DNA of 36,553 bases from contig CACXCH010000051.1 of the NCBI GenBank assembly GCA_902766085.1, forward strand, positions 1 to 36,553. Reading direction: 5' to 3'. This document shows positions 15,898-29,915 of this stretch, piece after piece; the stretch's first letter is position 1; every line of letters starts with the position of its first letter. This DNA comes from an uncultured Eubacteriales bacterium. Lineage in GTDB: Bacteria; Bacillota; Clostridia; TANB77; CAG-508. The position numbers and the translations under genes were made by a program. Under the pieces are notes generated by a model that saw only the letters and a list, made by a program, of their open reading frames with translations, was not told the origin of the DNA and ran no database searches.

Positions 15898-17907
15898 TTA
15901 ACTATTTTTCTTTCTATAGTATTTTTTTACATCTTTTACAGGCGATGCGATAACATCTGCAACATCTTTAGCCTTGCTCATTGCATTTTTTGCACCTATT
16001 TCAAGGTCTGTTGCCTCACTATATCCACCTGCTCTAATACTTGCAAAATCATTTGATATTTGGGTGTTTATGTTTTTATCACTCATTCCATTATTCTTAT
16101 AAGATCTTGAAAGCTTACCTATAGAGTCTTGTAGTTGTTCTTCTGCTTCTGTTTCTGGTTCTGCACCATTTGCAATTGCATCTGCTCTTTGTCTTACCAG
16201 CTCCTTTGCTTCTAAATCAATATCATCGCCTTCATCTCTTTCAATTTGGTCTCTATAAGAATTAGCCTGTGTTCTTTGTTCATCTGTTAATTCGTCAAAA
16301 CTGTCAATACCCATTTTCTGTCTAACTCTTTCATTAAGTATATCTTCTCTTGCTTCATTTTCTGCAGCTTTATAGGATTGCTGTAGGGCATGTCTGTTTC
16401 TATTTTCGCTATATTTTCGTCCACTAGCAAAACCATTTTTAATTGCACTTGCCCCTGCTGAAAGCATTGTTGTTGGTTCTCCTGTTGCCCCTGAAAGTCC
16501 AACGCCTAAAATCATCTTGCTTGCAATTTTGTTAGCCGTGACTCCAGCCTGAAATACTCCATTGCTTGTTACCTTAGAAAGAGCATTGTTAATTCTAGCA
16601 GTTCCTTTTTGTCCACTACCCACTTTACCTCCTTTTGCTAAAGCGTTTGCTCTTTGATTGTTATTTTCTCCTAATGTACCCGCATTAGGAGAAACATTCT
16701 TTCCAAAAGATTTTTCATTTTTAGTCTCATTTTGTGGAGTAATTGCTGTTTTGGATGTATATTTGTTTTTTGCCCCTGTTGCAATAGAATTAGCATTATT
16801 CATTATTGTCGCATAATATGCTGCATGTCCAACTGTGTCTGACATAGACTGAGGATTGAAACCAAAAATTAATTTAATAATTTTTTCTGCTTCATATAAG
16901 AATACAATCATTATAAATGCAACAACAACAGCTGATAGGCTTCTCTCTGTTGTCAAAATCTTCATTGCTGATTCTACTAAAGCTAAATATGCTGCACATT
17001 GAAATGGCTGTATTAATACATTGTATGCAAACTCCTTGAACCAATTATCTAATGCTTGAGATTTATTATCACCCATTTTGTCAAGTGAATATGTTACTGT
17101 TACAAGTGGTGAAATTACTATTAAAAATGCAATTGTAATCATACGTTTTAAGTACGCAAGCAAAAATACAAATGTCATTCCAACAAGTGCTAGATAAGCA
17201 AGAGCACTTCCAAGGCCTTCCGTAAACGATAGTGACCAAGAATTTACAAAGAACTGGTCAATCATATCTATAGTATCACCCTTGTTATTAGTTAACGCAG
17301 TTGCAAAAATGCTTACAAGCCTATTATTCATAACTATAACAAATTCCATTATATAATGCAATACAAATAGTAAAGCAATACTTATAAGCCAATTTACTAT
17401 CATTTCGCTATATCTTGCTTTTTCCTCTGCTGCAGTTGATATTGCCATTCTTAGCCCTGTATATAGTAGAATAACAAATAATATCGTAGCTGATAGGTTT
17501 CTTATGCCATAATACCATATTGCAACATTTTCTCTAATTGTTTTTACCATGCCATTTTGAGGATTTAAGTTGAAGAAATCAATTGATAAAATTTCAACTT
17601 TATTAAATAAAATCTCATCCAGTGTTAAGCTTAATCCATCTTCTGCAAATAGTCCCATTACCGTTTCTAGCGTTCTTCCTATTAATAGTGGAACTATTTT
17701 AGCAGGGTAAAGCAAAATTCCTGCTACACCATCTAGAAGAACATCTATAATATCCTGCTCTGTATCAGTTGTAGATTTCCATGTTTCTATTTGTTTTTGT
17801 AACTCATCATAGGAAATTTCTGTATAATTTGGAATTTCTCTTTTAGTTGTATCAATAGAATGTCCCTGTCCTCCGTCCTGCTGGTAAAAAAACATCATAT
17901 CCGTCAT
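15898..17907 (-). CDS. VirB6/TrbL-like polytopic membrane protein, C-terminal fragment of a frameshifted gene (paralog 1)
   Basis: The 6-7 TM core is shared with the other paralogs: LYPAKIVPLLIG, IRENVAIWYYGIRNLSA, LLYTGLRMAIS, ISPLVTVTYSLDKMGDNKSQAL and LIQPFQC. The listed start is nominal. The reading frame continues from ORF 17852..18637 after a 1-nt shift at the A7 run 17886-17892. Confidence 0.7.
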   Translation of the reverse strand: MTDMMFFYQQDGGQGHSIDTTKREIPNYTEISYDELQKQIETWKSTTDTEQDIIDVLLDGVAGILLYPAKIVPLLIGRTLETVMGLFAEDGLSLTLDEILFNKVEILSIDFFNLNPQNGMVKTIRENVAIWYYGIRNLSATILFVILLYTGLRMAISTAAEEKARYSEMIVNWLISIALLFVLHYIMEFVIVMNNRLVSIFATALTNNKGDTIDMIDQFFVNSWSLSFTEGLGSALAYLALVGMTFVFLLAYLKRMITIAFLIVISPLVTVTYSLDKMGDNKSQALDNWFKEFAYNVLIQPFQCAAYLALVESAMKILTTERSLSAVVVAFIMIVFLYEAEKIIKLIFGFNPQSMSDTVGHAAYYATIMNNANSIATGAKNKYTSKTAITPQNETKNEKSFGKNVSPNAGTLGENNNQRANALAKGGKVGSGQKGTARINNALSKVTSNGVFQAGVTANKIASKMILGVGLSGATGEPTTMLSAGASAIKNGFASGRKYSENRNRHALQQSYKAAENEAREDILNERVRQKMGIDSFDELTDEQRTQANSYRDQIERDEGDDIDLEAKELVRQRADAIANGAEPETEAEEQLQDSIGKLSRSYKNNGMSDKNINTQISNDFASIRAGGYSEATDLEIGAKNAMSKAKDVADVIASPVKDVKKYYRKKNS

Positions 17908-18637
17908 CACTTGTTGTACTATAAGTATAATTATTTGTTCTATTCTTACTTTCATCGTGGTCTAATATATTTTCTACTAATGTTTTAGCACTTTGGTCAT
18001 ATACTATATAGGTAAAATTATCAATTTTACTTGGATCTTGCCCTGTTGGTATGTAATAATATATTGAACTACTTGTATTTCCCGATGCATTTGTTCCACT
18101 ATTGCTACCACTGTTTGGTGTTCCTGTTCCTCCATTTTGTGTAGTTGTTCCTTGGTTTGTAGTACCACTATTAGATGTATTACTTTTTCCAGTTAAATCA
18201 TCCGATTGCCCACTTCTATCACTTGAAGCTCTGTATGTTAATCCTATATCATCTATTTCTTCTTGTGTGCTACTGTCTTCATAATGTGCCACCCATTTTC
18301 CAGTTGAGTCTTGATATATATACATTGGATAGGAGCATTTAGCATCTCTTGCATCTTCGTTAGAAATTTCATAGTATGTACCATCATCATCTGATGTTTC
18401 ATTATATATTATTTTTTTCTTTCCTGCACCTGCGCTTGAGTCTAATGTGGTATAAACTACAATTTGTTTATTACTACTATCATAATAATAATAGTCAACT
18501 TGGCAATTTTTCTTAACAGTGTCTTCAATTGCAGCAAAGGAAACATCACTTAGTATAAAACTAATTATTATGCTAGCAATAAGTATAAAAACTATTAACT
18601 TTTTATGTCTTATATTCCACTTGTGACTCATTGACAC
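17852..18637 (-). CDS. N-terminal (signal/TM plus variable ectodomain) fragment of frameshifted VirB6-like paralog 1
   Basis: The 261-aa ORF has an N-terminal TM segment (LIVFILIASIIISFIL). Its Y/S/T/N-rich ectodomain resembles the N-termini of paralogs 2 and 3. It ends 11 codons after the A7 tract and overlaps the next ORF. The start is either GTG at 18637 or ATG at 18631. Confidence 0.65.
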   Translation of the reverse strand: MSMSHKWNIRHKKLIVFILIASIIISFILSDVSFAAIEDTVKKNCQVDYYYYDSSNKQIVVYTTLDSSAGAGKKKIIYNETSDDDGTYYEISNEDARDAKCSYPMYIYQDSTGKWVAHYEDSSTQEEIDDIGLTYRASSDRSGQSDDLTGKSNTSNSGTTNQGTTTQNGGTGTPNSGSNSGTNASGNTSSSIYYYIPTGQDPSKIDNFTYIVYDQSAKTLVENILDHDESKNRTNNYTYSTTSDDGYDVFLPAGRRTGTFY

Positions 18638-18708
18638 CTTTCTCCCTTATTTTTTACCCATTTTATAATAAATAATTATTTATTTTCTAAAAAATATTAT
18701 TTGTTATT

Positions 18709-28621: not shown

Positions 28622-28622
28622 T

Positions 28623-28754
28623 ATTACTTAAAGATCCTTTCCATTTCGATTTCGTTGCCAAATGATTTGCCTTAACATTATTTCTATTTCAATTTTGGTA
28701 CCAAATTATTAACCTTACACATTATTTCTATTTCAATTTTGGTACCAAATTATT
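28623..28754. repeat. 44-bp-period tandem repeat (two perfect 35-bp cores plus one degenerate copy), each with a TTTGGTACCAAA palindrome
   Basis: The cores cattatttctatttcaattttggtaccaaattatt at 28676-28710 and 28720-28754 are identical. A degenerate copy lies at about 28623-28666. The proximal copy contains the last 8 codons and the stop of the 28728..29915 CDS. Confidence 0.85.
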
Positions 28755-29915
28755 TACTTTAACATCTTTTAATTCTTTATTAAATGCCGCTCTTCTAGGG
28801 ATTATTACTTCATTTACAATTCTTTCAATATTACTAATTAATCCTAAAAGTATCACAAATAGTAAAGGTTGAGAGGCAAATATTTCATCTGCAGATAGCA
28901 CAAAAATTGAAAAGATTAGTAATTGGACTGGTTGTTTTATTACCTCTGTTAAAAATTCTATCCACCAGTTTTGAAAGGCTTGAGCAGTTCCATCCCTCAT
29001 TTTATCAAGAGAATATGTGGCACAAACAAGTGGTGATATTACAACATAAAAATAAATTTTAAATGTTCTTAATAAATATACAACAAAAAATTTAACTTCA
29101 TAATATGTAAGCATACAATATACGATAAAAAAATATACCGGATGATTTGCCGTGGTGCCGTTCTTAAATAGTCCATTTATCGTTTTATCTATTATCTGCG
29201 TCTCAATATTTGTATCTATTGCTCCACTAGTTGCTTTAACTATCATACTTACAAATAAATTTGATGCATATATTATTGTAATCATTAAAATATGTAGAAT
29301 ATATATAAGGCAAATGCTTATTGTCCAATCGATAAGCATTTGTTTATACTTTGCCATTTGCTTTGGTGACGCGCCTCCATCTGTAGCTAAAAGTATGGCC
29401 ATTCTTAATCCCGTATATAAAAGTAATACTAGAATTATAACTGCTGATATATTTCTTACTCCAGTATACCATTTTGCAACATTTTCTCTAATGCTATTTA
29501 CTAAATCATCGTTATTTCCTGTATCTGTTTCCCAAAAGTTAATTCCAAATAGGTCGTATTTATTTGATAAAAGATTGATTATTGTAAATGTATCTTTAGT
29601 GTTAGCTACAAGTTGTATAAAATAGTTTCCCAGTTTCGGTATAAATGAAAGAACCAATGCCAATGCTCTTAATACAGTAACGCCAATGCCTTGCTTTGCT
29701 GCAAGTGTTTTGGTTTTTTGTGAAGCATTTCCATTTTCATCTTCAGATGTATATGTTGCCGTGCCACTATCTATTTCTTCATTTATGTCATTTGGAGATG
29801 TAGCATCTAAGTCCTCACCTAAAGATGATGGAGAAGCTATGTCTGCATAAGAATTAACTGTAAGTAAACTTAGTACAGTTAATATTGTTAGAAAAATTGC
29901 AGTTACTTTTTTCAT
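28728..29915 (-). CDS. Short VirB6/TrbL-like polytopic membrane protein (paralog 5, core only)
   Basis: The 395-aa protein has a signal peptide ending NSYA-DI. Its core reads IRENVAKWYTGVRNISA, LLYTGLRMAIL, ISPLVCATYSLDKMRDGTAQAF and VIKQPVQ. It has no long C-terminal tail. Confidence 0.7.
   Translation of the reverse strand: MKKVTAIFLTILTVLSLLTVNSYADIASPSSLGEDLDATSPNDINEEIDSGTATYTSEDENGNASQKTKTLAAKQGIGVTVLRALALVLSFIPKLGNYFIQLVANTKDTFTIINLLSNKYDLFGINFWETDTGNNDDLVNSIRENVAKWYTGVRNISAVIILVLLLYTGLRMAILLATDGGASPKQMAKYKQMLIDWTISICLIYILHILMITIIYASNLFVSMIVKATSGAIDTNIETQIIDKTINGLFKNGTTANHPVYFFIVYCMLTYYEVKFFVVYLLRTFKIYFYVVISPLVCATYSLDKMRDGTAQAFQNWWIEFLTEVIKQPVQLLIFSIFVLSADEIFASQPLLFVILLGLISNIERIVNEVIIPRRAAFNKELKDVKVNNLVPKLK

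Follow-up and report, generated by a model that had tools for sequence, protein, structure and literature searches.

Arrays of three to five tandem VirB6-family genes are known from the chromosomal, non-conjugative type IV secretion systems (T4SSs) of the Rickettsiales, that is, the rvh system and those of the Anaplasmataceae (PMC7648143). There a conserved transmembrane (TM) core is flanked by large and divergent hydrophilic extensions. Bao and colleagues reportedly described such arrays of extended VirB6 paralogs in Rickettsiales and Anaplasmataceae in 2009. The subject of this article is an array of like architecture in a Gram-positive bacterium: five tandem paralogs, P1 to P5, encoded on a stretch of 36,553 nucleotides (henceforth the window) from an uncultured member of the Eubacteriales (contig CACXCH010000051.1, assembly GCA_902766085.1). 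A literature search for VirB6 paralogs in Firmicutes turned up no description of such an array. The most likely reading of the results given below is that VirB6-like genes of the extended kind have multiplied here within a Gram-positive T4SS that appears to be non-conjugative.

The parallel with the Rickettsiales had been drawn in the first-pass annotation of the window, and as a matter of architecture it holds. The systems themselves differ. The rvh systems are P-type systems of diderm alphaproteobacteria, with genuine PF04610 cores and a type IV coupling protein (T4CP), whereas the window comes from a monoderm Clostridium, its core resembles TrbL_4, its locus contains no T4CP, and the N-terminal extensions of its paralogs are predicted to be exported by Sec. 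Another comparison is offered by the Trw system of Bartonella, in which trwL and the trwJ-trwI-trwH segment have been amplified in tandem, the coupling protein has been lost, and the machine serves in adhesion. As in the window, genes for both the VirB2 pilin and VirB6 (TrwI) have been multiplied, and several Bartonella genomes carry two or more TrwI clusters per chromosome. The TrwI copies, however, are of standard length and closely related to each other, and the host is Gram-negative. Variation in Trw is thought to lie in the components of the pilus.

In Gram-positive bacteria the comparison is with TrsL of pSK41 and pGO1 and TraL of pIP501, polytopic proteins of T4SSs of the mating-pair formation class FATA (MPF-FATA), which make up Pfam TrbL_4 and are the VirB6 homologs of their subclass of conjugation systems. 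Their profile is similar to that of the paralogs over some 200 residues, and their loci show the order pilin, VirB3, TrsD, VirB4 and, further on, a hydrolase. But TrsL is a protein of about 280-305 amino acids (aa) encoded in single copy beside the coupling protein, while the window has five copies placed after VirB4, 395-1029 aa in length, four of them with large exported domains and long tails, and no VirD4.

A true member of the family is found on a plasmid. CLK_RS20160 (594 aa), from pCLK of C. botulinum, aligns with the family profile at an HHalign probability of 97.4% (E 1.2e-11), and its gene lies between that of a VirB4-like ATPase and that of a C40 cell-wall hydrolase; a PF18895 pilin and PrgI are encoded upstream. 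It differs from the genes of the window in being single, plasmid-borne and annotated only as hypothetical. Relatives occur in plasmids of the pCLJ/pCLD type, and a tblastn search of 72,556 plasmids gave matches only in those of C. botulinum and C. sporogenes; the single copy in pCLK refers to the one record inspected. Conjugation of pCLK has been reported (PMC2884020). Directly downstream of the T4SS module of pCLK (L086, positions 16112-26855) there is a Tad/Flp-type pilus cluster with TadE, T2SS-F, an ATPase and a prepilin peptidase.

Finally, the T4SS of the Patescibacteria (candidate phyla radiation) derives from MPF-FATA and comprises a VirB2-like array, PrgI, TrsD and VirB4 but no relaxase (PMC12102498, PMC12857230). 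It is described as kept within the lineage rather than carried on a mobile element (PMC12102498; Wang et al. 2023 via PMC12857230). The locus in the window resembles it in all these components and in lacking a relaxase. It differs in that the patescibacterial VirB6 is mostly single and matches the MPF-T VirB6 profile, with no VirB6 array reported, and in that the host here belongs to the Clostridia. For an effector-secreting T4SS in Firmicutes, the one case cited in PMC12857230 is 89K of S. suis.

The window has a G+C content of about 30%, and nearly all of its long open reading frames (ORFs) lie on the minus strand. In a MAFFT alignment the five paralogs (coordinates in Table 1) share a polytopic core that is about 300 aa long and has 43 invariant columns, and a hidden Markov model (HMM) of that core matches all five at E values from 1e-100 to 1e-134. 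The genes, all on the minus strand, lie where the first-pass annotation placed them, their homology is confirmed, and the range of protein lengths it gave is correct. Its core motifs are essentially right as well, save that P3 has LFP in place of LYP, P2 reads LMYVGLRMAI, P4 reads ITRYALD, and the motif given as LI[QK]QP is LIQP in P1 to P4. Where it erred was in counting five single genes. P2, P3, P4 and P5 are intact ORFs, but the interval assigned to P1 is not one ORF: it does not divide evenly into codons, and it is frameshifted.

The cores of P1, P2 and P3 are 55-58% identical to one another; compared with the core of P4 or P5, they show 28-36% identity. Hydropathy and AlphaFold secondary structure give six to seven hydrophobic helices per core, in keeping with the 6-7 TM core proposed at first, and the AlphaFold2 model of P5 is all-helical, with long TM helices (predicted local distance difference test, pLDDT, 85.4). 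The ectodomains are as different as had been claimed, with 5-30% identity. All five proteins begin with Sec signal peptides that end in AxA-like sites, as read from the translations. P1 to P4 carry exported N-terminal regions of 128-265 aa and tails of about 310-425 aa, while P5 is without both large extensions, so that the form of an extended VirB6 (a TM core flanked by large hydrophilic extensions, the subfamily of RvhB6 and of TcpH, ConG and Orf15 of MPF-FA) is seen in P1 to P4 and not in P5. Acidic N-terminal regions and basic C-terminal tails fit a predicted topology with the N-terminus outside, the C-terminus inside and an odd number of TM helices. In P4 the exported region is an endolysin-like domain, ELLD, which the P4 ortholog of the sister species (L004) carries too. 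ELLD or Peptidase_M23 is found in other members too, though most ectodomains among 55 long members of the family have no known domain. As to the tails, the C-termini of P1 to P3 share by eye a basic aromatic motif (KKYYRKK, KKFFRKK, HHYYRRKRRK), which recalls the positively charged C-terminal signals of T4SSs.

The array stands within a locus that spans about 7.5-35.2 kb of the window and that, judged by its genes, is a pSK41-like Gram-positive T4SS of MPF-FATA layout. Three VirB2-like pilins, PrgI, a TrsD-like gene, VirB4, the VirB6-like array and an M23 hydrolase follow each other as in the conjugative S. aureus plasmid pSK41 (TrsB pilin, TrsC, TrsD, TrsE/VirB4 and later the TrsG hydrolase). 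The P5 gene lies directly downstream of VirB4, with the PrgI-like and pilin genes upstream and the hydrolase gene downstream, as expected within a T4SS cluster. Related loci were gathered by way of VirB4, which gave about 400 stretches in a collection with one genome per species; the best 80, with VirB4 71-89% identical to that of the window, include Clostridium sp. CAG:793 and CAG:575. In all, 85 related loci were scanned with the core HMM and with the other proteins of the window. Pfam and NCBIfam searches of the 36.5-kb window brought up neither a relaxase nor a coupling protein, and no integrase or replication gene either; BLASTP and phmmer found no T4CP or relaxase within 10 kb on either side of VirB4 in the 85 loci. 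The queries in the latter search were three coupling proteins and three relaxases, and the positive control, PrgJ, found every VirB4. The first-pass annotation had correctly recognized paralogous polytopic channel components and had set them beside Firmicute conjugation systems. The background, a conserved chromosomal T4SS with neither relaxase nor T4CP in the locus, does not look like a conjugative element.

How close is the core to VirB6? The nearest link is to TrbL_4 (PF19597), the family to which TrsL of pSK41 belongs (69 bits). HHalign of the family profile against TrbL_4 gives a probability of 84.9% (E 6.5e-6) over 204 columns that include the motifs SPL..(S/T)..D and W..(K/R)E, while the reversed control and 20 column-shuffled controls did not exceed 0.8%, with E values of at least 0.07. 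Reciprocal HMM matches are weak, at 9-21 bits (19.7 for the family HMM on TrsL, 20-21 for the TrbL_4 HMM on P3 and P1). The top matches of both AlphaFold models (pLDDT 74.8 and 85.4) to PDB entries, by Foldseek, are TrwI/VirB6 chains of R388, for which solved structures are available (7O3V, 8RT9, 8RTD). The hallmark used for Gram-positive VirB6 homologs is the presence of at least four to six TM helices (PMC12857230), and each core, with its six to seven hydrophobic segments, shows it. The family appears to be remotely related to the TrbL_4 VirB6 homologs of Gram-positive bacteria, though by current thresholds it does not belong to them. To that extent the VirB6/TrbL identity proposed at first stands, although none of the paralogs matches Pfam TrbL or TrbL_4.

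Several results weigh against this assignment or against what is built upon it. None of P1 to P5 matches PF04610 (TrbL) at E 0.01 or better and none of the 55 long members does at E 1e-3 or better, while the controls PrgH and TrwI score 29.2 and 170.7 bits; nor do P1 to P5 or the 55 long members match PF19597. For TrbL_4 the HHalign probability of 85% falls short of 95%, and the alignment used for that family holds only seven sequences, assembled from plasmids. The fold matches to TrwI (probability 0.94-0.99, E 0.03-0.1, TM-score 0.28-0.43) are below usual significance, and a search of PDB sequences with the family profile returned only spurious matches to TM segments of ion channels (E at least 0.07). 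Against TrwI-type VirB6, PrgH-type VirB6 and TcpH, HHalign gives no more than 1% (0.2% for the first two, 1% for the single TcpH sequence, which itself has no Pfam family). But the control of true homologs, PrgH against TrwI, also gives 0.4% with these shallow alignments, and TrbL_4 against TrwI or PrgH also stays below 1%, so the comparison is insensitive and is not counted as evidence against VirB6 homology. Gene position raises another difficulty. In loci of the pSK41 type the slot after VirB4 is held by the unrelated TrsF, and the TrbL_4 gene adjoins that of the coupling protein instead; in pSK41, pBMB67 and four other plasmids it follows or neighbours VirD4. To these must be added the frameshift in P1, present in all four assemblies compared, and the fact that a T4CP or relaxase may be encoded elsewhere in the genome, outside the region searched.

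A feature absent from the first-pass annotation is a VirB2-pilin-like hairpin inside the core. Of all Pfam families only PF18895 (T4SS_pilin) touches the core, at a helix-loop-helix that reads ...LLYTGLRMAI..KAKYK.... On P3 and P5 the match is below threshold (E 2-4e-4), but 26 of the 55 long members show it at E 1e-3 or better, the best at 1.2e-6. The core aligns with the pilins of the locus at an HHalign probability of 70% (E 4e-5; reversed control 0.4%), and small pilin ORFs of related loci match the core HMM at 1e-6 to 1e-7. Weak matches between TM hairpins call for caution, however, as TrbL_4 reached E 0.0035 against reversed pilins. The evidence for a hairpin of this kind is suggestive. 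The paralogs are not themselves pilins, which have about 100-150 aa, a signal peptide and one two-TM hairpin; they are polytopic and far longer.

Relatives of the paralogs are "hypothetical" proteins of uncultured gut Clostridia, none of them annotated. When 1.84 billion cluster representatives were searched with the family profile, 4,490 members came up at E 1e-3 or better. The 150 best hits listed fall into two length classes, one of about 370-440 aa and the other of 630-1000 aa. The lineage evolves fast and had not been annotated before. The TrsD-like gene and VirB4 followed by VirB6-like genes is the order in related loci, and the number of copies varies. There may be one long copy (L066-L085) or a short and a long one (e.g. 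L040-L051, L060-L064), and most loci whose VirB4 is at least 80% identical to that of the window have a short copy, the gene for a protein called here p420, a long copy with a large ectodomain, a second long copy and the hydrolase. Short orthologs of about 400 aa fill the slot of P5 in most related loci. Among the 85 loci, five copies are found only in the window and probably in its sister species, where the fifth gene (890 aa) runs off the end of the DNA and its membership in the family is only probable. The contrast once drawn between five genes here and a single gene elsewhere must be amended accordingly. The five are real, but three copies, not one, are usual in the closest relatives, so the step peculiar to this lineage is from three to five.

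An M16 peptidase gene lies upstream of the locus in 29 other loci as well, and this synteny is kept across species whose VirB4 is from 72% to 95% identical to that of the window. In a more distant clade (L001-L003) the locus adjoins clpC. Given the M16 synteny, and with no T4CP or relaxase near VirB4 in the 85 loci, the locus behaves like a chromosomal system at a conserved site, passed on by vertical descent.

The sister species, whose VirB4 is 95% identical, has one-to-one orthologs of P2, P3, P4 and P5. Identity between the two species is 73-77% in the cores, 40-56% in the tails and 9-47% in the ectodomains. Nonsynonymous divergence (dN) and its ratio to synonymous divergence (dN/dS) were estimated by the method of Nei and Gojobori, and the values are rough, dS being about 1-1.6 and near saturation. 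They rise from VirB4 (dN 0.03, dN/dS 0.03) and the TrsD-like protein (0.11, 0.07) through the cores (0.14-0.18, 0.12-0.16) and tails (0.33-0.51, 0.25-0.34) to the ectodomains (0.43-0.85, 0.36-0.70). The exported parts evolve faster than the VirB4 ATPase by an order of magnitude. The contrast between ectodomain and core, which the first-pass annotation had thought worth looking for, is plainly there. Purifying selection acts on the cores, and P2 to P5 are by that token functional genes.

P1 is a different matter. It is broken by a +1 frameshift at a run of seven Ts in the coding strand; with six Ts the frame is restored, joining ...DGYDVF to YQQDGG..., and the repaired protein is colinear with P2. 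Three ENA assemblies (L090, L091, L092), independent of each other and each made from another sample, have the same seven Ts and carry the same array at 99.86-99.98% identity. Both halves of P1 are still open, so the lesion is recent. In the zero frame the Ts make up a U_UUU_UUA heptamer. Programmed -1 frameshifting at the heptamer, which is in the right register, was considered and dropped, as the -1 frame is the wrong one and soon meets a stop; a +1 shift or the loss of one T is required. Phase variation of the run is also unsupported, with seven Ts in four of four assemblies, though consensus assemblies would hide minority variants.

It might be suspected that the array itself is an artefact of assembly. 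A cross-match of the paralogs at the DNA level finds only one stretch, of 315 bp at about 81% identity, and genes so divergent exclude the collapse or expansion of a repeat. At least three other assemblies show the same order of genes, and the sister species has an orthologous array. The artefact, a possibility raised at the outset, is rejected, and the array is real. In L092 P4 seems to be split, but what interrupts it there is an NNN scaffold gap and no mutation.

My proposal, which I consider probable but well short of assured, is that the tandem array encodes five paralogous forms of the VirB6-position subunit in a domesticated, likely non-conjugative Gram-positive T4SS. P5, beside VirB4, would be the constitutive membrane platform. 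P1 to P4 would be extended-VirB6 versions of the same core, bearing exported modules behind their Sec signal peptides. In P4 the module would be a peptidoglycan hydrolase of endolysin-like type, while P1 to P3 would carry unrelated modules that are beta-rich or of low complexity. Their basic tails are probably cytoplasmic. The paralogs would either join P5 in hetero-oligomeric bases or take turns in the VirB6 position, and different wall-spanning or surface modules would thereby be arranged around one VirB4-powered machine, which probably also builds a VirB2-type pilus. The array would have grown by tandem duplication from one copy to two, three and then five, with P1 to P3 the youngest. Since neither relaxase nor coupling protein nor integrase is found in the locus, and its place in the chromosome is conserved, a domesticated apparatus for contact, secretion or pilus formation is likelier than a machine for conjugation. 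A bolder version of the proposal can be entertained only tentatively: that a large clade of uncultured gut Clostridia domesticated a pSK41-type machine into a vertically inherited, relaxase-less surface organelle with mixed or alternative bases made of up to five VirB6-like paralogs. Each of these would present its own fast-changing exported module, be it a cell-wall hydrolase or a putative domain for binding targets, the tails might replace the coupling protein, and the hairpin would nucleate the pilin polymer.

An alternative view is that the locus is the mating-pair-formation module of a conjugative element that encodes its relaxase and coupling protein at some other place, with additional paralogs that serve in mating-pair stabilisation, recipient recognition or entry exclusion. 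Accessory roles of this kind, specific to conjugation, belong to the C-terminal domain of TraG of F. The gene order is after all that of the conjugative pSK41, the only plasmid-borne homologs are on pCLK-type plasmids of C. botulinum and C. sporogenes, pCLK being conjugative (PMC2884020), and T4CP genes are sometimes found far from virB4 (PMC12102498). It is nonetheless an unlikely view, for it must accommodate a window in which no relaxase, T4CP, integrase or replication gene was found, 85 loci without relaxase or T4CP in the 10 kb to either side of VirB4, housekeeping flanks with the M16 synteny kept across so wide a range of VirB4 identities, and a VirB4 under strong purifying selection (dN/dS about 0.03).

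Multiplicity might on the other hand mean nothing, with P5 and perhaps one long copy doing the work and the others drifting toward pseudogenes. A frameshift in P1 fixed in four assemblies suggests such drift, the fast evolution of ectodomains and tails speaks for it too, and a copy number that ranges from one to five among related species implies that the extra copies are dispensable for the machine. I think it rather improbable all the same. P2 to P5 are intact and have one-to-one orthologs in the sister species, with core dN/dS values far below neutrality, the three-slot arrangement (short copy, p420, large-ectodomain long copy, long copy) is kept across dozens of species, and the lesion in P1, both halves of which are open, is recent. 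Quite improbable, in my judgment, is that the family is not VirB6 at all but a polytopic platform for the assembly or anchoring of pilins, built around the VirB2-like hairpin, so that its resemblance to TrbL_4 and TrwI reflects no more than a generic architecture of helical hairpins. PF18895 is indeed the sole Pfam family on the core, the alignment with the pilins of the locus and the matches of small pilin ORFs to the core HMM point the same way, and Pfam TrbL matches are absent. Yet the alignment with TrbL_4 extends well beyond the hairpin and takes in the SPL...D and W..E motifs, and the notion is in any case compatible with that of VirB6, as a VirB6-like protein may hold a pilin-like hairpin.

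Table 1. Positions of the paralogs and of other features in the window.
Feature	Position	Strand	Remarks
tRNA gene	79-151	-	Rfam 60.4 bits; window edge
Four tandem N-terminally anchored exported proteins	7575..11512	-	333, 452, 178 and 322 aa; end of locus
Cell-wall hydrolase	11566..15753	-	1395 aa; N-terminal TM anchor, C-terminal Peptidase_M23 (E 6e-26); NCBIfam peptidoglycan hydrolases
P1, long paralog	15898..18637	-	912 aa if repaired; two ORFs, 17852-18637 and 15898-17955; core 16840-17751
Run of seven Ts in P1	17886-17892	-	+1 frameshift
P2, long paralog	18709..21432	-	907 aa; signal peptide, exported domain of ~256 aa, core 19678-20574, 322-aa tail
P3, long paralog	21643..24066	-	807 aa; signal peptide, exported domain of ~128 aa, core 22699-23592, 351-aa tail
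Basic aromatic motif sites, P1 to P3	15898-15930, 18709-18740, 21643-21690		by eye
P4, long paralog	24161..27250	-	1029 aa; signal peptide, ELLD, core 25433-26371, basic C-terminal tail of 423 aa
ELLD of P4	26588-27124		Pfam E 2.9e-29
p420, N-terminally anchored exported protein	27359..28621	-	420 aa; between P5 and P4
44-bp tandem repeat, three copies	28638-28765	-	Tandem Repeats Finder score 184
P5, short paralog	28728..29915	-	395 aa; signal peptide, exported linker of ~50 aa and core only; core 28773-29696
VirB4-like ATPase	30090..32060	-	656 aa; NCBIfam CD1110 family 1e-64, Mbov_0397 5e-60; Pfam P-loop_TraG, AAA_10
TrsD-like ("TraC-like") membrane-anchored protein	32076..33284	-	402 aa; orthologs carry PF26593 TraC-like
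PrgI/VirB3-like two-TM protein	33284..33712	-	weak Pfam PrgI (E 0.006), weak PrgI in orthologs; position upstream of VirB4
Three VirB2-like pilin genes	33748-34209, 34250-34618, 34836-35198	-	PF18895 E 8e-6, 9e-8, 1.5e-7; TrbC 1e-5
Promoter-like TTGACA-17-TATAAT	35227..35255	-	upstream of first pilin gene; 12/12, pattern match only

The other parts of the locus deserve some comment. The VirB4-like ATPase is without the usual N-terminal part, and the CD1110 profile is matched only from position 171. TrsD is remotely homologous to the N-terminus of VirB4 (PMC12102498), and the TrsD-like protein of the window is probably a split-off N-terminal module of VirB4; the pair is found in 83 of the 85 loci. 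The hydrolase occupies a VirB1-like slot, downstream of P1. The gene for p420, which matches no Pfam family above threshold, has homologs in the same slot in 45 other loci, sometimes duplicated (L008, L073, L080). It was considered as the counterpart of TrsF of pSK41 but shows no similarity to it, and TrsF was likewise rejected as a relative of the paralogs (HHalign no more than 1%). The four proteins at the end of the locus each have one N-terminal TM segment and an exported domain rich in N, D and Y, and none matches Pfam. That of 178 aa is conserved in 25 other loci and that of 322 aa in 30; the four might be counted as candidates for VirB8-like parts or parts of a cell-wall complex.

The array contains no terminator-like site on the minus strand, consistent with transcription as a long operon, and an Rfam scan found no family within it. 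The first copy of the 44-bp repeat coincides with the last 11 codons and the stop of P5 (VKVNNLVPKLK), and copies 2 and 3, increasingly degenerate, occupy the spacer ahead of the p420 gene. The repeat is possibly a duplication scar or a regulatory element. Three tandem and divergent pilin genes in a Clostridial chromosome recall the pilin arrays of Saccharibacteria, reported to be essential (PMC12102498, PMC12857230). Housekeeping genes flank the locus, that of the M16 peptidase on one side and, on the other, those for a GT8 protein, an iron-containing alcohol dehydrogenase, a pseudouridine synthase and a tRNA. The tRNA gene is far from the T4SS locus, with housekeeping genes between, and is not an obvious integration site.

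Whether the T4SSs of Gram-positive bacteria have evolved roles other than conjugation is a question of long standing, and this locus is a candidate. What makes it one is that it is chromosomal and syntenic in many species, has no relaxase or coupling protein, and combines a pilin array with an expanding set of VirB6-like proteins whose exported domains evolve fast. The limits are those of remote homology, of uncultured organisms and of function deduced from genes. Within them, the array offers a second, independent multiplication of VirB6 to set beside that of the Rickettsiales, where the reason for the paralogs remains open, and it defines a large unannotated family, of about 4,500 clusters at 50% identity, linked to TrbL_4. 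There is also a hint that proteins of the VirB6 type can hold a pilin-like hairpin, which would bear on models in which VirB6 primes the assembly of the pilus. If the system is indeed a domesticated organelle, then it would be a rare non-conjugative T4SS in Firmicutes, convergent with rvh and with Trw of Bartonella and related to the essential T4SS of the Patescibacteria.

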